Of a DNA stretch of 64,000 nt, positions 2,641-16,744 are shown one piece after another. This DNA is from Chthoniobacteraceae bacterium. Lineage in GTDB: Bacteria; Verrucomicrobiota; Verrucomicrobiia; Chthoniobacterales; Chthoniobacteraceae. The DNA is taken from NCBI GenBank assembly GCA_037190965.1, contig JBBCKI010000029.1, forward strand, positions 64,001 through 128,000. The letters are read 5' to 3'. The notes under the pieces were generated by a model. That model ran no database searches, was not told the origin of the DNA, and saw only the letters and a list, made by a program, of their open reading frames with translations. Each line of letters starts with the position of its first letter. The stretch's first letter is position 1. The translations under genes were made by a program, and so were the position numbers.

Positions 2641-2945
2641 TCTGCGTTCGAAACGTTCATCGTACTTGCTCCGGTTGTTGGCGGGACGGGAAGGCTTTCT
2701 CCTTCTCCGGCGGGACCATGACAAACGGGCGACGAACGAATTGTTTTCTCATTGCAGCCATCTTTAGAAGCCTAAAATCGTTGCGAATTTCTGACAGTCA
2801 ACGATTGGCTGACCAACCAGGGCTCGAAGAGCATGAGAAATCAAGTCAACAAAGGCTTGGCGAGCGGCACGCGACCTTGCCGCGTTTAAGGACGATCCTG
2901 GGTTGGCTCCGTATTCTGGATTTCAGCGATCCGGCTTCCAATAGG

Positions 2946-4769: not shown

Positions 4770-4906
4770 CGTTATAGACCCCGAGCCGTCATTCTTCGGC
4801 CCAAGCTGTCACAAAGCGCCTGAACAGATACAAGCAGAAGTCCCGGAGACTGAGTGGATTGATCGCGATTTGGCACAATCTGACGCGGGGTGCCAATTAG
4901 AGGAGA
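4770..4906 (+). pseudogene. Degenerate relic of an integrase C-terminal tail abutting the left att copy
   Basis: Translates PETEWIDRDLAQSDAGCQLEEI, gap-free colinear with PETEGFRRELTLLDIARHEEGL of the resident integrase just before its att. Confidence 0.5.
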
Positions 4907-4930
4907 TTGGCTGCCTTACTAGGACTCGAA
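4907..4930 (+). repeat. att direct repeat, tRNA-distal copy (24 bp)
   Basis: TTGGCTGCCTTACTAGGACTCGAA, identical to 16559..16582 (reverse complement of the tRNA-Gln 3' end). Confidence 0.95.
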
Positions 4931-5107
4931 GGTACTGAGAAATCAAGTAAACAACAGGCTTGGCGGGTGGCGTTGACACTTCTGGGGACACACGGCTCTG
5001 ACGCGCTTAAGGATGAGGTTCTTGAGGTCTTGAGGCGATGGGGGAAGCTGCCTGAAGCGATGCGAGCGGGAATTCTTGCGATGATTCGGGCGTCGTCATC
5101 GATTTGA
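4907..5107 (+). other. Displaced (attP-form) C-terminal coding segment of the integrase
   Basis: Open frame begins with the att codons LAALLGLE, the same frame as in the integrase, and continues to ...RRWGKLPEAMRAGILAMIRASSSI*. Confidence 0.75.
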
Positions 5108-5183
5108 GTAACGGTTTTCCTTTATGCCTGCATCCCCCGGATGCCGGTGTCAAAATTCGTACTACAAATCCTTGAAGCAATTC

Positions 5184-6350
5184 TTAGAAATCAACTTTCC
5201 CAAAATCTGATAAGGCCTGTTGCCACGGGCGAATCCATCGTCCATCGTTTCGAGACTCATCAAGAAAAATGTCTTTATCATCGAGTTGCTCCCATCTTTC
5301 CCCTGCCTCTCGGAGCCATTTCCTTACGAGAGTTCCTGCTTCCTTTCCTTGGAGCTTCTTTTCTGTGAGTCCGAACCAAGCGAGATACTGCCGCCAACTT
5401 AATCCGAGCCAAGGGATTTTTGGCTCACTCGAAAACTGTGTCAAAATCGCCTGTCCCCAAAGATTGTTTGAATCTCCCATCGCTAAAAACTGGGGGAAAT
5501 CACGTTGAAGTCGGGCGATATCGGCTGGCCGAAGAAATGCCATCAAACTTTGCTCGAACCAGTAAGGGAGAGCACCTCCGCCTCCTTCTTTCTCTTCATC
5601 AAATCTACTTTTTGTAAATCGTCTGAGGTTGAAGAACTTTCCTGTGGCACAGTGAGTTGCGCCTGCAGCCTTCATTAATACCAATTCGCTTGAGCAATGG
5701 GAAAGTATCACAGGACATCCCGCCCTTTCTAAGGCTCCTATGAGGACCATGAGATTCAGAACGCTAGAACTATCCGTTAGTTCGCGGCGAGGCTCAACAT
5801 TCGATTCGACGACCAGATAACATGCTTTCTGTGAACCGCTTGTGATCGCAGAAGCGATGCGAAAGGCATCATTCCTATCGCCGAGTTCATCCAGATGCAC
5901 TCCGAGTGTTAAGATGGGTCGAATCGAAGACGACTGAAGGTTTTCGGCCAACTCTTCGTAGTTGGCAACGCAGTGGCAAAGATAGTCGCTATTCCATTTT
6001 TTGGGGATGACAGCAGGTGAACAAATTGCATCGACGGCAATTCGTTTTCCGTAATCGGCGATTTTTCCAACGATGTCAGACCACCATCGAGAAGAGGTTA
6101 AGTCTGCTGTATCAAGATCTTGTGGAAAGTACGCTTGGTCAGGGAGACGGCCAGCCTCGCTTCGGGGGTAATATAACTGAGGGTCAAGAACGATGTCGTA
6201 TTCGGCTTTTCTTCGGAAGTTTACGATGTCGTTTTGCAACTCAAGCTCCGTGCGATTAACCGGACTGAGAATAATCCCTTCGAAGGTTTGAAGTCCCCGC
6301 TCTCCAACGAGGTTTTCGGAGCCGTGGCCCATTTGAAAATAAGCGCCCAT
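5184..6350 (-). CDS. Uncharacterised 388-aa protein, predicted TIM-barrel-like (beta-protein/TGT-like fold is a guess)
   Basis: Long ORF starting 5 nt after the kinase stop; alternating beta/alpha pattern with GIILSP, LDPQLY, ICSP and ATGKFFNLRRF blocks. Confidence 0.7.
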   Translation of the reverse strand: MGAYFQMGHGSENLVGERGLQTFEGIILSPVNRTELELQNDIVNFRRKAEYDIVLDPQLYYPRSEAGRLPDQAYFPQDLDTADLTSSRWWSDIVGKIADYGKRIAVDAICSPAVIPKKWNSDYLCHCVANYEELAENLQSSSIRPILTLGVHLDELGDRNDAFRIASAITSGSQKACYLVVESNVEPRRELTDSSSVLNLMVLIGALERAGCPVILSHCSSELVLMKAAGATHCATGKFFNLRRFTKSRFDEEKEGGGGALPYWFEQSLMAFLRPADIARLQRDFPQFLAMGDSNNLWGQAILTQFSSEPKIPWLGLSWRQYLAWFGLTEKKLQGKEAGTLVRKWLREAGERWEQLDDKDIFLDESRNDGRWIRPWQQALSDFGKVDF

Positions 6351-6355
6351 AGGTT

Positions 6356-7201
6356 TTAATCTTCAAGTGCTGTTATAAGTTCCTGATGTACCGAAAATCG
6401 CTGAACAGGCCATGGGCGTACCATTTTTACCAAAGCCGCCAGCCCCTGCATCTCCATCTGTTTCCTAAACTCACCGGATGGCCCCTTCCTCGAGGCAGTT
6501 GCAGCCACGACTTGGGGAGGAGTCATGCCCTCAGCTTCGTAGGGATGACGAGCTGTTAGGGCTATACTGCCCACAACTCCAACCGAAAACTGATCCGTTC
6601 GCCAGTCAATCGACTGTTTTTCGTTATTGAGCTGCTCAGGTGACGAAAAATAGGGAGTTCCGGGTCCTTGAGGAAGCCAACTCATTGTAAGGGAGTGCTG
6701 AGAAAGATCACGAACGAGGCCAAAATCGACTAAAATGGGAATTTCTGAGTCATGACGAAACATGATATTCGCCGGTTTGATGTCCCGATGTACCAGCCGG
6801 TGCTCACGCAGCACTGCGATTGCTTGGACAAGCTCCAATAGAAGAGAACGGACTTCAAAGGGCGTAAAAAGTCGTTCAGCGAGACGATCTTCGAGTGTTC
6901 CTCCACCCAGAAACTCTTCAACGCAAACATCGTATTCGCAGCCGTTGTTCGCCCGAAAGGCTTTATAATCCAAAAGTCGAGCTATTCTAGTCGAAGTGCA
7001 GCGTTTTAAGGCTGCAATTTCTCTTTCAGTTCGGACGAAATCCGCTCTCGATCTGTCGATAACCTTTAATGCTACAATCTGCCCTTCAGGCGTTTCGGCC
7101 CGATAAGTTTCCTTAAATGCACCAGCTGCTTGAAATCCAATAATTTTGAATCCCAAAGTTCGACATGCCTCTTCGGCTACGCTATGAAGATTGCTTGTCA
7201 C
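6356..7201 (-). CDS. Hanks-type Ser/Thr protein kinase (catalytic domain only)
   Basis: VALK, EREI, HRDIKPANI, DFG, GTPYFSSPEQ, TDQFSVG; GTG start overlaps the upstream TGA (GTGA at 7201..7198). Confidence 0.93.
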   Translation of the reverse strand: MTSNLHSVAEEACRTLGFKIIGFQAAGAFKETYRAETPEGQIVALKVIDRSRADFVRTEREIAALKRCTSTRIARLLDYKAFRANNGCEYDVCVEEFLGGGTLEDRLAERLFTPFEVRSLLLELVQAIAVLREHRLVHRDIKPANIMFRHDSEIPILVDFGLVRDLSQHSLTMSWLPQGPGTPYFSSPEQLNNEKQSIDWRTDQFSVGVVGSIALTARHPYEAEGMTPPQVVAATASRKGPSGEFRKQMEMQGLAALVKMVRPWPVQRFSVHQELITALED

Positions 7202-7659
7202 CGTGATTCGCTTTCGACGTGCGTACGAGCCGCATCTGTTAGCCAAGGCAGCAACGGTGCATTTCGTTTCGGCTCAATTTCAATTTTTGGTTCGCCATTT
7301 TCCATGCAAATTAGGCCGATGCCCTGCCTCTGAAACTGCTCTTTTGACTTCAAGGCTGCTTTGCCTGCTCGACTGGGAAGCACTACGTAGCAGTAATGAG
7401 CAAAGCAGGCATTCCGACGAGCTTGTTCAAGGGCCTTTTTCCATTTTGACAATTTAGCCTCGAAGGCGTGCAAATCACCGCTAGTGCTGATACCGACGAT
7501 ATCGGTACGCCCAGAGGCGTAAAAGAATTCGAATCCGACGACATTACAAGGTATTGGGCTTTGAGCGGTGACTATCATCCGTGAGAGGGCATTTACGAGC
7601 ATTTCTTCCGTTGGATAGCAAGCATCGTTTTCGTTTTTTTTCCCAATGCGCGTGCTCAT
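7198..7659 (-). CDS. PD-(D/E)XK nuclease-fold protein (MmcB/sce7726-like)
   Basis: E...EF...GRTDIV...AFEAKL..W..ALEQA....FAHYCYVVLP...GIGLI; start uncertain (7659 or 7752). Confidence 0.75.
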   Translation of the reverse strand: MSTRIGKKNENDACYPTEEMLVNALSRMIVTAQSPIPCNVVGFEFFYASGRTDIVGISTSGDLHAFEAKLSKWKKALEQARRNACFAHYCYVVLPSRAGKAALKSKEQFQRQGIGLICMENGEPKIEIEPKRNAPLLPWLTDAARTHVESESR

Positions 7660-8257
7660 AGGCTTACTCCATTCAGTCCGAGGTGAACAAAAAAATTGAA
7701 AATGGCGTGTTTCAAAGATGAGTGAGCATTCATGCTCGGCCTCTAAATGCAAAGGTGTAAGTTTTTGGATTCGAGTCCGTTATGGCCTTCCAAAAGCATA
7801 CCTAACAGGTTTGCGACTTTAAGGCGGGGTAGAGGCCGTCTCGATATGGCGAGGTTTTGAAAATTTTGTCGATGATACTCTTTTGAGCCGCGTAAAGGGA
7901 AGTTGCTATCCGCAATTTCGAACGTCCGCCGAATCGCTCGCGCGCGCTCTGGTACTCGCCAAACCCGTCTGTGTCCGGTCTCTTTAAATTCAGCCAATGC
8001 TCCAAAACGTGTGAGCTTGCCGTCCATTTGGGTGTTGCAATCCGTTAGCTTGACCCTCGGAATCAGGGTGTTATCCTCTTGCTCCGACAAGCGGCAGCAG
8101 CCGCAGTGGGTTCGACCACTGCGACTGCCACTCTCGAGCTTGCCTTGCCGCCCCTTTGAGACCTTCCCGCTAAAGATAGGTTCTCATTGGGGCGACTTTT
8201 TTTCCACCGATCCAACAGCGGCAGGCTCAGCCTGCTGGATCGATGCTCTTCTTCTCC

Positions 8258-8698
8258 TCATGCGCTAGCTCCTTTCTCCGGTTCGATGGAATCCGTCTGG
8301 CTCTGGAGCAGCTTCTCCAGAGCCTTGAAAAGGGGTTCCAGTTGAAACTTGTTTGTCTGCGCTTCCCTCATTACTCGCTTCAGGTACCCCTTAGTTTCCA
8401 AACTCCGCGCATATCCTCGAACGGCGGTTGGCGTAACACCCATTTTTTTAGCCAAGCTCTTGAAGCCCGGGTATGGTGCCTCTTTGTCAAACTTGTGTCG
8501 CATGAGGTGAATGACCAATAGCGCTTCCGCGTGGCTCAGTGGTTGCGGCAACGAGGAGTAGCTCTCGAGAAAAAACACCGAAATCGGGGTAAAACCACCC
8601 TTTGCTATAAGGGCAGGTGTCCACCGATCCGTCACCTGCTTGGAAGCGGGCTGGTCGGATGCAAGGCTGCGTTTTTTCGGCTTTAGGTTGATCTTCAT
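8258..8698 (-). CDS. Winged-HTH protein (DnaD/replication-initiator N-terminal-like)
   Basis: GFTPIS...LSHAEALLVIHL...PYPGFKSLAKKMGVT...VRGYARSLETKGYLKR...TNKFQL. Confidence 0.75.
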   Translation of the reverse strand: MKINLKPKKRSLASDQPASKQVTDRWTPALIAKGGFTPISVFFLESYSSLPQPLSHAEALLVIHLMRHKFDKEAPYPGFKSLAKKMGVTPTAVRGYARSLETKGYLKRVMREAQTNKFQLEPLFKALEKLLQSQTDSIEPEKGASA

Positions 8699-8934
8699 TG
8701 CAGACAGCGGCAACTTTAAGGCGGAGCAGGGCTTGTACAAGGAAATTTTTCGGGGGTTGCCTGCTATGTTCCCTTTTAGCTAATTCGAAGTTCTTAAATT
8801 TTTGCTATGTTTCGGTGTAATGGTTCTTTCATACCCATGAATGGTTTTATACACCCCCTCCTGTAACAAATGTTTTAGATGGGGGTGTAAGCATTTTTTT
8901 ATTTTTCGCGCCTCAAAAACGCTCGGAATCGTGT

Positions 8935-9585
8935 TCATTGGTTTGCCGCCACAACCCGTTTGACCCGTTGAACAGTAGAAACTCCCTTCCCGCTGATTTT
9001 CGCGGTGTGGCGCACGGAATGTCCCGCTTTCAAATGACGGAGGATGTCTTTGTGCTTTTGCAGAAAGAGATCGCGAGAAAGAGCTGCCCCTGTAGGGCGT
9101 CCCAGTTTTACTCCTTTTCGCCGCGCTTCGGCCAACCCCGATTGAATACGCTCGCTCAGTGTCTCGATCTCGTTTCGGGCCATTTCGGCAAGAAGTGCCA
9201 GCATAATTCCTGCCGCTGGATTTCGTTTTCCGTTCTGAAGAAGGGTTTCAACGCCTTGAGCGTGCCAGTAGAGAGACACGCCGCACTCCTCCAGTGTCTC
9301 CACAAATTTGTGGGTGACACTGTTTCTGCGTGCCAGACGGGATACCTCATGAACAAGAATCTTTTTGATCTTACCGGAAGCTGCCAGCTCCTCTGCGCGC
9401 TTTAATCCGTGGCGGTCTGATTCCTTTGCACGACCGGAAACCGTCTCACGGCAAATCTCGATGACCTCGTAGTTTTTTCGGGTGGCATGTTCCTGCAGCT
9501 CCGAAATCTGACGGTCGGTTTCCTGTTTAACGGTCGAAACGCGGACCAAGATCGCGACCGGCACTTTGGGAGCATTCTCTTCCAT
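8935..9585 (-). CDS. Small serine recombinase (resolvase/invertase)
   Basis: RVSTVKQ catalytic Ser motif, ETVSG, SRLAR, ERIQSGL..AR.KG..LGRP, C-terminal HTH. Confidence 0.93.
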   Translation of the reverse strand: MEENAPKVPVAILVRVSTVKQETDRQISELQEHATRKNYEVIEICRETVSGRAKESDRHGLKRAEELAASGKIKKILVHEVSRLARRNSVTHKFVETLEECGVSLYWHAQGVETLLQNGKRNPAAGIMLALLAEMARNEIETLSERIQSGLAEARRKGVKLGRPTGAALSRDLFLQKHKDILRHLKAGHSVRHTAKISGKGVSTVQRVKRVVAANQ

Positions 9586-9602
9586 GTCGCGGAAAATTAC
9601 TA

Positions 9603-9715
9603 AGTGTGCTCAAATAATCAAGTGTTTTCATGAATACACCTAACGGGCAATTCCATGTCGATCACTCCTCTGTCGGTTCCCCTGAAAATTTGCGAACCAT
9701 TTTTTGAATACACCT
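9603..9715. promoter_or_regulatory. Putative res site / resolvase binding subsites
   Basis: TGAATACACCT repeated at 9631..9641 and 9705..9715, with an imperfect inverted copy (GTGTGCTCAAA) near 9604; directly upstream of the resolvase. Confidence 0.5.
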
Positions 9716-9746
9716 TCAATAAGAATCCCTATCAAATGTTTAACAT

Positions 9747-10271
9747 TTAGCTTGAGCGCGGCTTCAAAACCTTCCGACGCGGATAGACCACTATGAACTC
9801 GTCTGCTGCCCGCTTGATCCACTCGGCGCTTTTCCATCGGATCGTTTGGGGAATAGAATCCGCAACGTAAAAGCCCTTCTGGGTCGCGTCCACAAGAAGA
9901 ACGGCGTGCGGTTCAGCGTAACTGATATTATCGCAGGAGATGACCGGATTGCCTGCCTTAAGCGCGGCTCGGACGGCGCTACGGCTTCTGAGAGCTTTTG
10001 TTCTTACTCGGCACTCCTTCCGAAGAACCATTGCGATGTCCTCCAGTTGAGCGCCATCGGGGTTGCAATTTGTAAGATGGATTGCCTCTTGGTGGGACAG
10101 TAGCCGCCCGCTCAAAAAGTGGGTCGTTGCTTGCAAGACGGAAGCGCAACAAGAATATGGAAACTCTTGTTCGACGACCAAGACAGGTAGATGGCGAGCT
10201 TTCTTCGGACGCGGTAGTGGCCTCTGTGGGCTGTCCTCAAACCAAGACCGAATTGTCTCAATTAGCCCCAT
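9747..10271 (-). CDS. C39-like papain-fold cysteine peptidase
   Basis: EQEFPYSCCAS (Q...C), EPHAVLL (H), YVADS (D). Confidence 0.75.
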   Translation of the reverse strand: MGLIETIRSWFEDSPQRPLPRPKKARHLPVLVVEQEFPYSCCASVLQATTHFLSGRLLSHQEAIHLTNCNPDGAQLEDIAMVLRKECRVRTKALRSRSAVRAALKAGNPVISCDNISYAEPHAVLLVDATQKGFYVADSIPQTIRWKSAEWIKRAADEFIVVYPRRKVLKPRSS

Positions 10272-10605
10272 TCTTGGCTTCAGCGATGATCCGTGCGTTG
10301 TAGAGCTTAACTCGCTTCAGCGCGGAGAAGATCGATACAAGATAGTTTACAGAGAGGAATATCAGCCAAATGGGGGCCGATTGATCGAAGTACACCCAAG
10401 TAAAGAACCAGCCCAGCCCCGTGGAGACAACGCCAGTTAGAGCCGAAGCGTAGAACGTCCCGATGAAGGGGAAAAACATGGCTAAGAGCGCGGCTACCGT
10501 TGGATTCTTCAATTTTTGTTGGAGTTCAAGCAGTTGGAAGATTGAGTCATCTCGTCGGTTTGGCGTAGTGGGAAGCGGTGGGGGCTGGGCTACCTGTGGT
10601 TTCAT
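10258..10605 (-). CDS. Small membrane protein (TM2-like)
   Basis: KNPTVAALLAMFFPFIGTFY followed by two hydrophobic segments. Confidence 0.7.
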   Translation of the reverse strand: MKPQVAQPPPLPTTPNRRDDSIFQLLELQQKLKNPTVAALLAMFFPFIGTFYASALTGVVSTGLGWFFTWVYFDQSAPIWLIFLSVNYLVSIFSALKRVKLYNARIIAEAKNGAN

Positions 10606-10629
10606 GGGGCTAGTAATTAGGCGGTTTTC

Positions 10630-12450
10630 TCAAAGGTAGCCAAGCGCATCACGTTTCTGCCGCAAACTGCGAATTTCTGCATCGTTGGTGCCCCCCGTTT
10701 TCTCAAGCTCCCTGATCTGCGAATCGATAATGGCTCGCTGGGCATCTTTAATTTTTCGCAATTCGGCAGCTTCTTTAGATGGAGGGTCAATAGTCTCACG
10801 AGGAGACCTTAATGGAGCGCTATGATCTGGCTTTGCGTTATCCAAGTAATAGTTCACCAGAGCTTCCGACTGCTCCTTGGTGAGATTGATGTTAGGAAGC
10901 CGGGAGTTCTTGCCCCCGCTTTGCGCATACGATCCCCGCTGAAGAGGACTTGAATTGAAAGCATGGGAAGGCGCGGAACTACGGCTTGCTGCAACATTGC
11001 GAAGTCGCTCCGCTTCAAGCTTTTCCCATTCCTGTCTCTTCACCGCCTCTACGGCTTCCAACTGCTCACGACTTTTCTTTGCGAGGGAGGCTTGCGCATT
11101 CCTGTCTGCAATAAGAATTGATGCTGCGAGGTATAGGTCATCCGTAAGGATATCCTTGGAAACCTCAAATCGGCTTTGGCCCGAGCGCACAAACAAGGTC
11201 TCTCCTCGATCTTCGATTTGCTCAACTTTTGTTGCCGGCGGAAAGCCTACCACGCCGTCATCGGTAAAGAAGGTTTGATGCTGGGTCGTGTAAAACATCC
11301 CTTCAGGAGCTTTAGCCCGTACCAAGGGGGCGATAGATGCGCTCCAACAATAGGGGCCACCTCCAGCACACGTGTAAGTCCCGGCAACCGTGGTTCCATC
11401 AGGGGAAATCTCTCCATCGTAAACGCTGTCGCGCTTGTCGCTGCTGTTCTTCGACTGGATGTGAACCTTGTTTCCTTTTCGGGTAACAAAAGCTTGGAAT
11501 GTCTTTGTTCCTCCGCGCTCGCCATCTTTCAGGGAAACATCAAAAATCGTAGAATAGCCCCGACGAATCCATTGCCCTTTCCATTCGCCGTACTCTTGAG
11601 CCTTCCAAACGGTTCCTAGAATATCGTCAGTAACAGACTTTTGTTTTTCGACGGCGGCTCTTTGTTCGTCAATGGAACCGGCACCGGGCGCTACTTGTGT
11701 GCTCGCCTCTACAGATGGGGCCGCGCTTTCAGCAGGGGTCTCAAATCCGCTCAATCCCATCAGCCCAGCGATAAGGAGTAGGCTGTAGGCGAGGCATAAG
11801 CTCGTAAGGACCCGCCCCTTGCCTCTGAAAGCTGGGTCTCTCCTAATCTGCGCACGCGCTAGATGCCCAAGAACGAGCGTTGGAACTCCAAGGACAGCGA
11901 AGATCACTCCGATGACGATCAAAGCGGCATGTGGGCCGAAGGTATGCAGAACGGGGCCGTAGGAATTGGGAAGAAATCCCACGAGAAGAAGGGCGAAAAT
12001 CAGGGAGAGTCGCGCTTTTAGAGGAACCAAGCATTGCTCGCCTTTCCCTAGCGCCCACCAGACACCGCCTATCAGGAAGAAAAGGGCTTGGAGAACAAAA
12101 ATTCCTTTCTCTACCGGTGAGGAAACCAATTTAAAGGCATAGAGTAGCCCGAGACCGAAAAGGATGAAGAGGCCCCCAATTGCCCGCTTGGTAATACCCT
12201 TTATTCGTGACTCCTCGTAGGCATTTGGCTTCTGAATCCCTTTCTCTGGGAGCCTTGGAGCGGGCGCTTGGGCTTCGGGGGCCGGGCTATGAGAGATTTC
12301 TGGCACCTGAAAGATGGGTTTCCACTCATCCATGCCCTCATACCAAGCGAGATCCATCGGATAGAGCTTTCCCGAAGCGAGCATTTGACGGGCTTGCTCT
12401 ACCGAGTACGGGCCAAGCCGCCTATCGTTCCTTCCAATGTAGATGTCCAT
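10630..12450 (-). CDS. GYF_2 (DUF4339) + DUF4190-like membrane protein with large C-terminal soluble domain
   Basis: N-terminal GPYS....L..G.L...DLAWYEGM.EW; about 5 TM segments; LGHLARAQIRR....GKG motif. Confidence 0.8.
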   Translation of the reverse strand: MDIYIGRNDRRLGPYSVEQARQMLASGKLYPMDLAWYEGMDEWKPIFQVPEISHSPAPEAQAPAPRLPEKGIQKPNAYEESRIKGITKRAIGGLFILFGLGLLYAFKLVSSPVEKGIFVLQALFFLIGGVWWALGKGEQCLVPLKARLSLIFALLLVGFLPNSYGPVLHTFGPHAALIVIGVIFAVLGVPTLVLGHLARAQIRRDPAFRGKGRVLTSLCLAYSLLLIAGLMGLSGFETPAESAAPSVEASTQVAPGAGSIDEQRAAVEKQKSVTDDILGTVWKAQEYGEWKGQWIRRGYSTIFDVSLKDGERGGTKTFQAFVTRKGNKVHIQSKNSSDKRDSVYDGEISPDGTTVAGTYTCAGGGPYCWSASIAPLVRAKAPEGMFYTTQHQTFFTDDGVVGFPPATKVEQIEDRGETLFVRSGQSRFEVSKDILTDDLYLAASILIADRNAQASLAKKSREQLEAVEAVKRQEWEKLEAERLRNVAASRSSAPSHAFNSSPLQRGSYAQSGGKNSRLPNINLTKEQSEALVNYYLDNAKPDHSAPLRSPRETIDPPSKEAAELRKIKDAQRAIIDSQIRELEKTGGTNDAEIRSLRQKRDALGYL

Positions 12451-12528
12451 AAATCGCGGTTTCCTCTGGTGTGGATTTGAATACTATAGTCTGTGTCGCG
12501 ATGGGTCAACGGTCTTTAGCCTCGGTGA

Positions 12529-12768
12529 GTGTCCCGAGAGGCGTTTGCCAACGTGCTGAAGACCTTACGCGGTCAGAAAAAGCTCTCCCAAGAGGAGTTG
12601 GCCTTTCGGGCCAACGTGCATCGGACGTATGTGTCCCAATTAGAGCGGGGGCTAAAGTCACCGACCTTGGATACCCTTTCTCTAATCTGTGAAGTCCTTG
12701 AGATTCGGGTTTCCGATCTGCTGCGTCTGGTCGAAGAAGAAGCAGATGCCCGAAAGACGAGGCGTTGA
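12529..12768 (+). CDS. XRE-family HTH regulator (R-M controller C-protein-like)
   Basis: LSQEELAFRANVHRTYVSQLERGLKSPTL. Confidence 0.88.
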   Translation: MSREAFANVLKTLRGQKKLSQEELAFRANVHRTYVSQLERGLKSPTLDTLSLICEVLEIRVSDLLRLVEEEADARKTRR

Positions 12769-12855
12769 ATCTCTCAAGCGCCTCTTCGCAGCGTGGGGAC
12801 TGGAGGCAAAAGTTTGATTCGTTCAGACTCATGACGGGACGGCTTACTCCCCGAT

Positions 12856-12892
12856 TATTCTAAATGCGAGTAAAATATTCTTCATGAGAATA
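12856..12892. promoter_or_regulatory. Tandem 17-bp pseudo-palindromic boxes upstream of the second XRE gene
   Basis: TATTCTAAATGCGAGTA (12856..12872) and TATTCTTCATGAGAATA (12876..12892), 20-bp period. Confidence 0.5.
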
Positions 12893-12926
12893 CATCCGGC
12901 GCAAGAATCCCGTAGAAGGGCGGCAG

Positions 12927-13178
12927 GTGAAGAAGACCCGCCAATCGAAATTCAAAAACGTCATCGGCGAGCGCGTTCGGCTCGCTCGGGTCTCAATGAC
13001 GCCTCCGGTTTCTCAAGACGATCTATCGGGCAAGCTGGCACGTCTAGGCGTCCAAATCACTCAAACGTCTCTTTCGAAATTGGAGAGCCGCCAGCGCTAC
13101 GTACTTGATTACGAGGCGCTTGCCATTTCAAAGGCGTTAAAGGTGGAAATCTCTTGGCTTTACGGAGAGGGAGGGTGA
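12927..13178 (+). CDS. XRE-family HTH regulator
   Basis: NVIGERVRLAR...SQDDLS.KL...G.....TSLSKLES.QR.V.D.E...I..AL.V...WL. Confidence 0.85.
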   Translation: MKKTRQSKFKNVIGERVRLARVSMTPPVSQDDLSGKLARLGVQITQTSLSKLESRQRYVLDYEALAISKALKVEISWLYGEGG

Positions 13179-13181
13179 TCG

Positions 13182-14429
13182 CTACGCGGCAGCAGCCAGC
13201 TCAAGAGAAGGGAATTCCTCTCGGAGTTCTTTGATTTTCACCGTAGGCCGAAAGCCGAGCACTTTTTCATACTCTTCCTCCAAGACGCCTTTGAATTCGG
13301 CTGTGTGTTTTCCCGTGGTGACAAGGCAATCGTGAATGCTGATCATGCAGACGTTGCCTGAGGTGTATTTTTGGCCAATTCGTATGGCGGCGCTATTGAT
13401 CACGATATCTGATTCTATTTTCTGGATTTTTTTTGCCAAATCACGCTGGTGCCTCCGCTTTTCGGCTTTGATACGATCAGCCAGTATTGGAAATTCAGCG
13501 ACAAATATCTCCCAAAGCTCCGCTGGAGGAGCGTAGGCTGAACCAAAGAAGATAGCTCTGAAAACGGCTTTCTTGAATTCGGTTTTGACCTCGTCATCTT
13601 CTAAGTTGAACGGAAATTTCAACCTGCTGTTCAGAAATGCGTAGAACGTGTTGCCGCTGACAATGGCTACGTACCTCGATTTTTCCTCGCATTCCTCCCG
13701 GTACAGCAGCGACGCAATGCATGGATGTGAGCCGGAGATATCAATGGAGTACAGCGGCTCTCCATTGTAGGTCAGAAACGGCCTCAATTTCCGGGGCATG
13801 TTTGTCAAGTTGTTATAAAACCGCCCCTGTGCATCGCTGCTCACGCGAAAGTAGCGCTGCTCCAGCCTCAAAATTGCATTCAGCCAGAAGTTCTCTGATC
13901 TATCCTTCGTAAATGCTGTCAATTCGAGAAGCCGCCGCGCGCCAGCAGCATCGAAGGTCAAAGTCTGCAAGCTCTTATAGATTAACCGCTTTCCCGAATG
14001 TCCCTCGATTTCACGCAGGTTCTCTTCGAGTTTAACGGTATTTATTCTTCTTCCGAACCGGCTATTCGAGATAGGAGTCGTTTTGAATCTACACCCCCAG
14101 AACCTTTTGCCGATTCGATAAGATTTACTTTCTTGTTGTGGAGAATAGGTTTCACGATTCCGTTTCTTTCTGACCTCAATAATTCCGCTTTTGAGAAGAG
14201 CGTCTTTTACATCGCTCAGGTGATGCGACGTGAGCAGTCGTTCCAGTCGTTTTGAATATACGGGGAAATATTCAGCCCAAGTTTTATCGAGAATTACGTG
14301 CTGAAGATAAAGTGAACTTATCAAGTAATTGCATTTATCACGGAATAACGATCTATTCAGGTAGCTCAATCCGCACCGGTTCAGCTCTTCCTCCAAATCA
14401 AGGTTTTCGGGAACAAAGAAACAATCCAT
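13182..14429 (-). CDS. Divergent family-A / T7-RNAP-related polymerase (TV-Pol-like)
   Basis: DAQGRFY (DxxGRxY), motif A SIDISGSHP, motif B FKKAVFRAIFFG, IQKIES, motif C SIHDC; N-terminal region looks wHTH-like. Confidence 0.75.
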   Translation of the reverse strand: MDCFFVPENLDLEEELNRCGLSYLNRSLFRDKCNYLISSLYLQHVILDKTWAEYFPVYSKRLERLLTSHHLSDVKDALLKSGIIEVRKKRNRETYSPQQESKSYRIGKRFWGCRFKTTPISNSRFGRRINTVKLEENLREIEGHSGKRLIYKSLQTLTFDAAGARRLLELTAFTKDRSENFWLNAILRLEQRYFRVSSDAQGRFYNNLTNMPRKLRPFLTYNGEPLYSIDISGSHPCIASLLYREECEEKSRYVAIVSGNTFYAFLNSRLKFPFNLEDDEVKTEFKKAVFRAIFFGSAYAPPAELWEIFVAEFPILADRIKAEKRRHQRDLAKKIQKIESDIVINSAAIRIGQKYTSGNVCMISIHDCLVTTGKHTAEFKGVLEEEYEKVLGFRPTVKIKELREEFPSLELAAAA

Positions 14430-15069
14430 GCCTCATTTATAGCTAGGGAAATCGATTTTTATAGGGGATTTTTTTCTTTGAAGAGGGAAATGGGAGGAAA
14501 AGCGAAGAACATATGAACTGTACTATATTTTTTCTTGATGTACATCATCATGTTCAATGGTATTCATGCCTTTATTCCCTATGATACTCCTGTTTAAACG
14601 GGTCTTTGTTATATTCACTTAATGATTCTGTGTACGGTTCTCTGGCATGTTGGCCTATATCTTCAAGCAATAGTAGCCCCCGAATTGCGGGTTAAAGGGT
14701 TAATCGCTATTAATCCTTTCAGAAGTGCAGCAGAAGCACGGGCGTGGTCTCCCGCGATTTTCGAAGCAAAAGGCTCAGGAGGGGCATTTACGCTCGATCT
14801 CGGGCTATCTCTAGATTGGGAATCAATCCCAAAGAATCGGGAGAAATAGCGCGGCTCCCCTATGCCTTAGCATGAAATCGGGCTTTTTGATACTTTTCAT
14901 AAATGCGTGGGGGGGATGTCGATCGATCATCGCAACGAGAAGGGAGGAATCTTGGAATAATTCTGGTAACGACAAAAAATCCAAAAATCGACCTATAAAA
15001 TCGCCAGCTCACGGCTATAAATGAGGTATCGGCATTAGGCCGATGAGAAACAATAAAAAATAGGAACTT

Positions 15070-15267
15070 ATGGTAATGGATAGTGATGAGAGGTTGATCG
15101 ACTCAAAGGCTGTAGCCGCGATGCTCGGAATTAGCGAGCGAGGCGTTTGGCGAGCGGCAGGTTGTGGGGCTATTCCTGCTCCAATTAAAATTAGAAGAAG
15201 TGCTCGCTGGCTAAAGTCGGAGTTGGATGAGTTCTTCAAGAGAGCAAAAAATACAAGAAATAACTGA
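15070..15267 (+). CDS. AlpA/Xis-like excisionase-regulator
   Basis: LIDSKAVAAMLGIS...VWR....G.IPAPIKI.RSARW..SELDEF; directly upstream of integrase. Confidence 0.85.
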   Translation: MVMDSDERLIDSKAVAAMLGISERGVWRAAGCGAIPAPIKIRRSARWLKSELDEFFKRAKNTRNN

Positions 15268-15277
15268 ATGTTTACGA

Positions 15278-16744
15278 ATGCATATGATTAACTACGTCTA
15301 CAAAAAGAGAAAGAAAGTTGATGGTAAAACGGTTGCGTCTAAATACTACTATGGCCGTTATCGCTTGGAGGGTGAAACCAAAGTTACTCCTGTGTTTCTT
15401 GGGACCGCTGATAAGCAGGTGGCCAAGAAGCTCCTGAGTGACATAATTGTTGAAAAACAGAAACAGAAAGCCGGGTTAGCTCCGAGTTTCGGAAAAGATT
15501 CTTTGAGTAAGCCCATCGAAGAGCATATCGAGGATTTCGCCACCGATATGAAGGAGAGAGCAAGCGGTATGCATGTCTATACCATGCGGAAGAGGCTTCT
15601 TAAGCTTGCGAAAGAATGCAAATGGAAACATCTTTCAGATGCCACATCCGATTCGTTCGTTTCTTGGCGGTCGGCGCAAACTTTCGCCCCTTCAACGAGA
15701 AATCAGTACCTTGAGTATCTTTGCAGATTCTTTAAGTGGCTGGTTTCCGAAACGAAGCGTTTTCCCAACAATCCCTTTCAGGATTTGGGAAAGGTTGATG
15801 AGAGAAAAAAGGCTCGCGTTAGGAGAGCCTTCAACGATGAGGATTTGCAGAGGGTCTTGGATGTCGCTGGGGAATGGCGGGTTGGTTATCTGGCGGCTGT
15901 TTATACGGGGCTTCGGCGTGGCGAGTTAGCATCTCTTGAATGGAGGCATGTTCATCTTGACGCTGCCTCCCCTTACTTGACGCTTGAAGGGGAGTTCACG
16001 AAAAATGGGGAGCCTGCAAGCCTGCCTCTCCATCCTGATTTGGTTGAACAATTGGATCGAGTCAGGCCGCTGGAGGCTTCGCCATCGGAAAAGATCTTCT
16101 CCAAGAGGACTTTGCCGACCATTTACATGCTCAAAAGGCATCTCCAAAAGGCGGGGATTCCATTTAAGGATGAATCAGGCAGGCAGCTCGATTTTCACTC
16201 CTTGAGATACACGTTAGCAACCAACCTTTCGTTAGGCAACGTTGCCCCGCGTATTGCAATGGAGATGATGCGCCACAAGGACATTCATCTGACGATGAAC
16301 ACCTACACGGACTCCAGCCGTTTGGAGCTTCACGGAGCAATCAAAGCTCTCCCATCGTTCTCCTTGCCCGCCGCAACCTCGAGGAAAAAGGGAGGTGGTG
16401 AGGTGACACAGATGGAGGCACAATCTCCAGACTCTGATGGTCAAGAGCTGGCACAACCTGTCGCGGGAGGGTCTTCGGGCCTTCCCGCCCATTCCCCTGA
16501 AACTGAGGGCTTTAGGCGTGAACTGACGCTGCTTGACATCGCCCGTCACGAAGAGGGGTTGGCTGCCTTACTAGGACTCGAACCTAGACAAACAGATCCA
16601 GAATCTGCAGTGCTACCATTACACCATAAGGCAAGGTGGGATCCGCTTTTCCGTGCGGGAGTGGAGTATCTAGACGGAAAAGAGGGTTGGCGCAATAGAA
16701 AATCGCTCGGGATGGGGCGAAAATGTTGGAGGTCAGGCTCTTAG
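15278..16744 (+). CDS. int: Tyrosine recombinase/integrase (frame reads through att and antisense across the tRNA)
   Basis: TGLRRGEL (R), FTKNG (K), FHSLRYT (HxxR), MMRH, MNTYTD (Y). Confidence 0.95.
   Translation: MHMINYVYKKRKKVDGKTVASKYYYGRYRLEGETKVTPVFLGTADKQVAKKLLSDIIVEKQKQKAGLAPSFGKDSLSKPIEEHIEDFATDMKERASGMHVYTMRKRLLKLAKECKWKHLSDATSDSFVSWRSAQTFAPSTRNQYLEYLCRFFKWLVSETKRFPNNPFQDLGKVDERKKARVRRAFNDEDLQRVLDVAGEWRVGYLAAVYTGLRRGELASLEWRHVHLDAASPYLTLEGEFTKNGEPASLPLHPDLVEQLDRVRPLEASPSEKIFSKRTLPTIYMLKRHLQKAGIPFKDESGRQLDFHSLRYTLATNLSLGNVAPRIAMEMMRHKDIHLTMNTYTDSSRLELHGAIKALPSFSLPAATSRKKGGGEVTQMEAQSPDSDGQELAQPVAGGSSGLPAHSPETEGFRRELTLLDIARHEEGLAALLGLEPRQTDPESAVLPLHHKARWDPLFRAGVEYLDGKEGWRNRKSLGMGRKCWRSGS
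16559..16582 (+). repeat. att direct repeat, tRNA-proximal copy (24 bp)
   Basis: Identical to 4907..4930; spans T-loop to CCA of the tRNA. Confidence 0.95.
16560..16633 (-). tRNA. tRNA-Gln (anticodon CTG)
   Basis: Minus strand TGCCTTATGGTGTAATGGTAGCACTGCAGATTCTGGATCTGTTTGTCTAGGTTCGAGTCCTAGTAAGGCAGCCA folds as a cloverleaf with GTTCGA T-loop and encoded CCA. Confidence 0.97.

Follow-up and report, generated by a model that had tools for sequence, protein, structure and literature searches.

What becomes of an integrase when the site at which it recombines lies within its own gene? This question is raised by a genomic island in a stretch of 64,000 nucleotides (nt) of DNA from a Chthoniobacteraceae bacterium (assembly GCA_037190965.1, contig JBBCKI010000029.1, positions 64,001 to 128,000), which is referred to here as the window. 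The island carries a tyrosine integrase gene (int) whose open reading frame (ORF) runs through the attachment (att) core at the right end of the island and then into a tRNA gene on the opposite strand. An earlier note on the same DNA had proposed that integration and excision exchange the C-terminus of the integrase (Int) for this reason. We found that the geometry is as proposed and that it recurs throughout a large integrase family, and, taking the whole explanation together, we consider it likely that the island represents a small integrative element in which attP, the attachment site of the excised circle, lies inside the element's own gene for a lambda-type tyrosine integrase. The features on which this reading turns are as follows.

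4907..16582, no strand: integrated island, 11,676 bp with both core copies, the 24-bp repeat standing at both ends
4907..4930, no strand: attL core, a displaced copy of the 3' end of tRNA-Gln (repeat match)
16559..16582, no strand: attR core, within the tRNA gene and the int ORF alike (repeat match)
16560..16633, minus strand: tRNA-Gln(CUG), converging on int (ARAGORN)
15278..16744, plus strand: tyrosine integrase ORF, integrated form, 488 aa (ORF, PF00589, phrog_1)
15896..16318, plus strand: catalytic domain, residues 207-347 (PF00589), with the Tyr343 codon at 16304-16306
16376..16558, plus strand: linker from the catalytic domain to the core, predicted to be disordered, which holds the P-side word described below
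16583..16744, plus strand: C-terminus of the integrated form, 53 codons and a stop, antisense through tRNA-Gln and its upstream region, unstructured in prediction
4907..5107, plus strand: tail ORF, 8 core codons, 58 tail codons and a stop, joined to int in the excised (attP) form only

The ends of the island are marked by an exact 24-bp direct repeat, TTGGCTGCCTTACTAGGACTCGAA, with copies at 4907-4930 and 16559-16582 and 11.65 kb of DNA between them. Its right copy consists of the final 23 nt of tRNA-Gln(CUG) plus one base. The GC content is about 0.42-0.53 in the island, about 0.62 in the right flank and 0.54-0.64 in the left flank. Candidate starts of int lie at 15227, 15278 and 15284, and from the ATG at 15278 no stop occurs before 16744, so that the 488-aa integrated form is made up of 427 residues before the repeat, 8 over the repeat (LAALLGLE) and 53 antisense to the tRNA and beyond. 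The left copy of the repeat is in the same phase as int and is followed by 58 codons, ending in RRWGKLPEAMRAGILAMIRASSSI, and a stop at 5105-5107; the excised circle would therefore encode a protein of 427 + 66 = 493 aa. All of these points, namely the absence of a stop before att, the peptide read from the 24 bp, the 53 codons after it, the 58-residue frame at the other end and the lengths of 488 and 493 aa, had been given in the earlier note and were reproduced by ORF translation.

The protein matches the phrog_1 integrase family (E 2e-43) and carries PF00589 at residues 207-347 (E 9.5e-14; 52 bits, the cut-off being 27.1), a domain that was also found in all of the 40 aligned homologues. 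R213, K242, H307, R310 and Y343 are invariant in these homologues and H333 is nearly so, and we take these columns to have the catalytic roles familiar from the tyrosine recombinase family. Every catalytic residue is encoded upstream of att, and hence R213, K242, H307, R310 and Y343 are retained in both forms, as had been claimed. Since the PF00589 domain is intact within residues 1-427 of the integrated ORF, the gene does not qualify as a suicidal integrase of the SSV type. The crossover in the core parts the tail from int at integration and rejoins it in frame at excision, with the catalytic residues present in both forms.

Is this arrangement an accident of one locus? A search for homologues of the integrase gave 381 at E <= 1e-3 among 8000 scored, and most of the best 120 have lengths of 420-460 aa. 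Antisense translations of tRNA genes form the C-termini of many of them, with endings such as GFEPRQ.DSES.VLPLHH, GARYRVRTCD, SGRQDSNLRP and ...CRARTRT. Among GTDB species genomes, at least 586 relatives were confirmed out of 602 pattern matches; the locus counts below refer to the best 80 of these, which come from Verrucomicrobiota, Planctomycetota (Phycisphaerae), Kiritimatiellota and a few bins labelled otherwise. A minus-strand tRNA gene stands at the 3' end of int in 59 of the 80 loci, with 20 isoacceptors represented, and in 52 of these 59 the stop codon of int lies within or past the tRNA. In random sequence, by our own estimate, the 70 or more codons from the catalytic domain to the tRNA would be free of stops in only about 2 of 100 frames. 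The arrangement is not due to chance, because the same layout recurs across the family, and an att site within int is normal for the integrases of this large family, which spans Verrucomicrobiota, Planctomycetota and Kiritimatiellota. No description of the family was found in searches of an open-access library.

If the core lies inside int in so many genomes, does the piece that is cut off at integration encode anything? A distal repeat of at least 24 nt was found in the upstream DNA examined for 15 of the 80 loci, and in 10 of these the int frame continues across it into a peptide of the form W..LP...R..IL. A profile built from 11 tails (those of the 10 loci and that of the window) matched 21 of the 80 loci at E <= 1.2e-8, always on the strand of int, and in all of the 21 except L034 the match lies upstream of int, in islands of 2.5-11.1 kb. 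In 18 of the 21 loci, as in the window, int and the tail ORF read the repeat that they share in the same codon phase. Detection varied with the length of DNA available: a tail was seen in 19 of the 44 loci for which 9 kb or more of upstream DNA was examined and in 2 of the 36 with less. When five tail-less loci were searched genome-wide, two proved to have an in-phase tail 16-17 kb upstream, beside a 26-28-nt copy of a tRNA-Val end. The tail consensus is DLxxVVxAWxxLPxxLKAAILAIVKA. The earlier note had mentioned peptides of the type W..LP...RAGILAM near att sites in PVC (Planctomycetes, Verrucomicrobia, Chlamydiae) bacteria, and such peptides do exist; an in-frame tail is kept across relatives that use many different tRNAs. 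Its conserved part in the window is the following.

5015..5095, plus strand: conserved helix-turn-helix of the tail, EVLEVLRRWGKLPEAMRAGILAMIRAS (alignment of 22 tails, codon-position pattern, fold of protein P0132)

A pairwise comparison of nucleotides over the 27 best conserved codons in the 22 tails gives identities of 0.49, 0.69 and 0.33 for the first, second and third codon positions; where two tails have the same residue, the codons differ in 1640 cases and agree in 975. The third codon positions being the least conserved, the frame being in phase and naturally fused proteins being known, we conclude that the tail is a true coding sequence. Searches of Pfam, PHROGs and NCBIfam returned nothing for it, and the only match of the tail profile among PDB sequences, helix III of the CbpA J-domain, was not significant (E 0.28).

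Most of the naturally fused proteins came from a profile search for longer proteins, which gave 23 matches at E <= 0.01, eight of them with PF00589; P0058 had already appeared among the homologues of the integrase. In P0058, P0132 (490 aa), P0134, P0141, P0145, P0146 and P0151, which are complete or almost so, a single frame holds the catalytic domain, a linker, a tRNA-like core and the tail; P0137 is a fused fragment, and the fragments P0131 and P0136 have the same type of ending. P0143 (414 aa) is fused as well, without the linker and core between the arm words described below, so that HTQIRAQI runs directly into the tail; this looks like a deletion between arm repeats or a collapse in assembly. 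P0123, a 105-aa fragment from a close relative, matches residues 398-435 of the window Int (66% identity, E 1e-10) and residues 1-64 of the window tail (57%, E 4e-24), and spans both pieces in one frame by way of LAALLGFE, which is the junction predicted for the window, seen in a relative. Viral contigs held 36 loci with distant relatives of the integrase (identity of 35% or less), one of which has the tail: a fused protein of 573 aa on a 43-kb contig with a large terminase gene and without a tRNA gene. Tail homologues fused to integrases and tail homologues beside tRNA-derived repeats, the two settings named in the earlier note, were thus both found.

Some other matches to the tail are of a different kind. 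The motif ends four unrelated ORFs, P0135, P0138, P0142 and P0152, the types represented being a large serine recombinase, an N6 methylase fragment, a DUF5060 protein and a kinase; most likely these are frames that read into an attL end and were reported as fusions by gene callers. P0122, P0128 and P0129, matched in the single-sequence search with the window tail, were set aside as spurious, being NB-ARC or FG-GAP repeat proteins. At L034 (11158-11409, on an 832-kb contig), the tail comes straight after int and a GGFEP core but is in a different frame, which looks like a tandem-insertion junction that mimics attP.

Might the tail instead be an independent small gene, translated from the attL side when the element is integrated and in frame with int merely through the overlap at att? 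Gene callers do report tails as free-standing ORFs; among the proteins matched when the 66-aa window tail was used as a single-sequence query, 7 of 10 are ORFs of 61-105 aa in which the C-terminal motif recurs. An Atlas feature search likewise pointed to small hypothetical proteins of Planctomycetota, with scores of 0.85-0.86 that serve as leads only, and in the window GAGGAG stands at 4900-4905, directly ahead of a TTG at 4907. That GAGGAG, however, is in host DNA and 1 nt from the TTG, a spacing too short for the usual ribosome-binding arrangement, and an ATG occurs between core and helix in just 3 of the 22 tails. A free gene would also have no need to be in phase with int, as 19 of the 22 tails are, and ORFs that join Int and tail occur naturally, one being encoded on a phage contig. 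We therefore regard a separate small gene as quite improbable and treat the tail as part of Int.

What the tail may look like on the protein was addressed by AF2 models. In the fused protein P0132, modelled with a 46-sequence alignment, the predicted local distance difference test (pLDDT) exceeds 90 for the body to about residue 360 and is below 50 for the linker at 378-455, and the tail is predicted as two helices, 457-468 and 471-485, with a pLDDT of about 92. The model of the integrated form in the window falls below 50 at 367-370, 372-377 and 379-486, and no structure is predicted past residue 366. The models show an N-terminal sheet and helix, and Foldseek aligned P0132 best with full-length lambda Int (1z1b_A, E 5e-10, 363 columns). 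The N-terminal family PF24624 (Int_N) was detected in 24 of the 40 homologues and was absent from the window protein at E <= 0.1. The predicted fold supports a lambda-type enzyme that might be able to read arm sites. A complex prediction for Int 1-365 with tail 30-65, run without controls, gave no verdict (score 0.00 against a mark of 0.32) and speaks neither for nor against binding.

If the enzyme is of this type, where would its arm sites be? The linker and the early tail of the relatives contain peptides such as YTQIRAQI, DSQIDSQ and TQIGAQ, which reflect repeats in the DNA. We searched 15 elements for the best direct 18-mer that occurs both in the 230 nt preceding the core and in the sequence following it, with 30 shuffles of each element. 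The best direct match reached at least 15 of 18 positions in 13 of the 15 elements and 18 of 18 in seven, the maximum in the shuffles being 14-15 and inverted matches staying at 14 or below. The distance from the end of the P word to the core is 122-161 nt, and that from the core to the beginning of the P' word is 28-70 nt. In all of the 11 relatives examined as whole loci of 13-21 kb, the word occurs once at attL and once at attR with no more than 2 mismatches; L037 and L051 each have a second, weaker match at attR, which overlaps the first and is set 12 nt further on, and a single 4-mismatch match lies elsewhere in the locus of L013. The pattern common to the words is, in our reading, like NNCACAAATAGNNNCAC. 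These element-specific 18-nt words are probably arm-type sites that Int would bind, and, if they are, the whole attP would lie inside int. The corresponding words of the window are the following.

16404..16421, plus strand: P-side arm-like word TGACACAGATGGAGGCAC, separated from the core by 137 nt, a position as in the family
4974..4991, plus strand: P'-side arm-like word TGACACTTCTGGGGACAC, separated from the core by 43 nt

Such repeats also bear on another explanation, in which att is free of stops only as a side effect of constraints on the DNA, that is, of arm sites, core and accessory-protein sites behind int, and the tail peptide has no function. The repeats in the linker and at the start of the tail, translated as 'QIxxQ' peptides, fit this explanation, as does the predicted disorder of the linker. 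The 27-codon helix does not fit it: third positions are the least conserved there, the same residues are mostly encoded by different codons, and the segment is confidently predicted as two helices. The openness of the frame over 70 or more codons in 52 of 59 tRNA-linked loci likewise argues against a by-product, which we hold to be highly improbable.

Several observations weigh against an integrase gene that contains its own attP and carries a conserved tail. Three of the 22 tails are out of phase. In L031, the tail is out of phase behind an interrupted int; in L019 and L074, the frame continues into unrelated peptides; and in L058 and L069, it ends after 6 codons. No tail was seen in the upstream DNA of 25 of the 44 loci for which at least 9 kb was examined, and of the five tail-less loci searched over their whole genomes, one had an unlinked match with an internal stop and two had none. 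The single-sequence search with the window tail covered 1.84 billion representative proteins and gave just 10 matches at E <= 1e-3, without an integrase-length fusion; such rarity of fused forms in databases is as expected if most sampled copies are integrated. The two arm-like words of the window agree at 13 of 18 bases, which is the level of the shuffles, and the P' copy was not found at 4 or fewer mismatches in the locus search; the arm sites of the window may have decayed or may be defined differently. Finally, no contig joined 16582 to 4931 or 4906 to 16583 among the assembled contigs of three runs from one study, one of which is probably the source of the DNA; contigs lose rare variants, so the absence of these junctions from them is uninformative about excision.

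How does the arrangement compare with systems that are already known? Integrases with att inside the gene had been noted for Myxococcus phage Mx8 and for archaeal SSV-type elements in the earlier note, and both precedents are in print. In the passages of PMC6070905 and PMC4383910 that concern Mx8, attP is placed inside the int coding sequence, and the enzyme is not inactivated when int acquires a new 3' end through integration into a tRNA gene; the relevant part of the second of these, the Islander paper, describes the Mx8 and SSV integrases as extending across attP. The window shares with Mx8 an attP core in the int ORF past the catalytic Tyr, a C-terminus that integration replaces, a tRNA-derived peptide after the catalytic Tyr (STGLEP in Mx8) and a small helix-turn-helix (HTH) gene directly upstream of int, the counterpart in the Mx8 record being uoi, which overlaps the start of int. 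In the window this gene is the following.

15070..15267, plus strand: HTH_17 gene, probable excisionase or directionality factor (PF12728 at E 1.1e-6), directly upstream of int

An equivalent upstream ORF has HTH_17 in 42 of 55 relatives. There are also differences from Mx8. Mx8 Int and the window Int have no detectable sequence similarity (BLASTP E 0.19), and the Mx8 tail is unrelated, giving no match to the PVC tail profile; the functional analogy is thus one of layout alone. The Mx8 tail runs for about 110 residues past STGLEP, whereas the element here has a 27-residue hairpin that is conserved over three phyla and 20 tRNA targets. Membership of the window Int in the sequence family of Mx8 Int was rejected on the BLASTP result and the negative tail profile, and what may be shared is the way of working, by analogy. 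No Mx8 record was among the 25 listed of 177 matching phage records. Mx9 Int is grouped with the Mx8 proteins IntP and IntX as the nearest known system.

Archaeal integrases of the SSV type share an attP within the integrase gene (as described in the relevant part of PMC7253208). In those systems integration splits int into two inactive parts, whereas in the window every catalytic residue stays in one ORF. A further comparison is offered by the integration-dependent immunity of mycobacteriophages of the BPs and Brujita type, in which, according to the passages of PMC13314858 on this system, attP lies in a coding sequence and the C-termini differ between phage and prophage and act as a switch. 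There, the gene that is cut encodes a repressor, and an SsrA-like degradation tag is removed from it; here, int is cut, and what is removed is a conserved helix-turn-helix with a variable end. The window was accordingly rejected as an immunity module of this kind: att is in int, and the tail ends are variable and not SsrA-like. The study 10.1101/410191 was rejected as a precedent because attP is non-coding there, and PMC12884075 and PMC3861242 have no bearing on an att site in int.

The repressor gene with a nested attP and an SsrA-like tag (PMC13314858, in the same passages) is also a precedent for a further alternative, namely that the tail belongs to Int and serves protein stability, the tethering of protomers or the recruitment of a host factor, with no role in directionality. 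A long flexible linker would suit a tether. The residues past the helix are unconserved, the end is unlike an SsrA tag and the conserved part is an amphipathic hairpin, all of which count against this alternative; we judge it unlikely, and do give it some weight.

The resemblance to lambda Int and other heterobivalent tyrosine integrases extends to the three-domain fold, to direct repeats that flank the core at fixed distances and to a small upstream HTH protein as candidate directionality factor. In lambda, attP is located outside int, whereas here the translated sequence of Int takes in the core and both arm words.

What would such a gene do for its element? On the preferred reading, in which int contains its own attP and encodes the tail, the ORF of the excised circle would run from the catalytic domain through a disordered linker with the P word, the tRNA-derived core and the P' word to the 27-residue helix-turn-helix. 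An integration crossover in the core cuts this ORF past the catalytic residues. The chromosomal copy accordingly encodes an Int with all catalytic residues and a C-terminus, antisense to tRNA-Gln, that is predicted to be unstructured, and the conserved tail is left at attL, 11.65 kb off, without a conserved start codon, until excision rejoins the two pieces in frame to give the 493-aa protein. By analogy with Mx8 IntP and IntX, the full-length Int encoded by the circle may be the efficient integrase, and the tail-less Int of the integrated element may be weaker or differently directed, excising only together with the upstream HTH_17 protein. Because its C-terminus differs with the state of the element, the sequence of Int would record whether the element is in or out and could bias the next reaction. 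The tail may in this way control activity, stability or directionality, as the earlier note had suggested. In its most specific form, the proposal is that a lambda-like clade spread over several phyla translates its whole attP, that a 27-residue hairpin joined to Int in the circle only makes the enzyme competent for integration, and that loss of the hairpin locks the element in place until the HTH_17 partner acts; we consider this possible, and somewhat doubtful. If true, it would amount to a general, self-writing directionality switch, of which Mx8 would be the only studied, and unrelated, example.

The remaining features of the island and its surroundings stand apart from this question. Adjoining attL, at 5184-7246 on the minus strand, are genes for a 388-aa protein without an assigned family and a 296-aa Ser/Thr kinase. 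The kinase matches PADLOC kinase models (mad6 at E 7e-33, and PD-T4-6), and the two genes may form a defence pair; generic similarity among kinases is an equally possible explanation. Further cargo, at 8258-9585 and 10630-12450 on the minus strand, encodes a 160-aa DnaD_N/HTH_36 protein with weak matches to PHROG replication initiators, a small serine resolvase/invertase and a 606-aa membrane protein with GYF_2 and DUF4190. No conjugation or capsid genes were seen among the cargo of the island. One contig with a loose end at 16559 carries unrelated sequence there, most likely the same tRNA end in another organism. The smallest member of the family that was seen is a 2.5-kb mini-island in a metagenome-assembled genome of Akkermansia muciniphila (L013, 8719-11420), which is inserted in tRNA-Lys and has a 53-nt repeat, int and an in-phase tail. 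To the left of the island lies one further feature.

2803..2915, plus strand: decayed relic of a related attL end (80% identity over 50 nt)

This relic begins with a tRNA-like 3' end that has 19 of the 24 core bases and continues into the start of a tail region; the alignment contains deletions of 1 nt and 18 nt, and the helix part is gone. An earlier insertion into the same tRNA-Gln was rejected as its origin: none of the 42 tRNAs of the genome matches it, and in our reading its acceptor-stem half would not pair with the 5' half of tRNA-Gln. The 2.1 kb from the relic to attL hold an NmrA-like gene and a LuxR-type gene.

The principle of an integrase gene that contains its own attachment site is known from Mx8. 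What is new here is the breadth of the family, the small, conserved and folded tail and the translated arm words; the family-wide design and the probable arm sites within the ORF also go beyond the earlier note. Since the part that is exchanged is small, conserved and confidently folded, and since the arm words are clear in the family, the idea can be tested with short constructs. The self-rewriting int of Mx8 has long been a curiosity, and the same design is the norm in an otherwise unrelated large family. For the annotation of these genomes, this means that the antisense-tRNA C-termini of the integrases are products of integration, that orphan 'hypothetical proteins' of 60-100 aa at the ends of islands are integrase tails, and that the two together mark the boundaries of the islands precisely.

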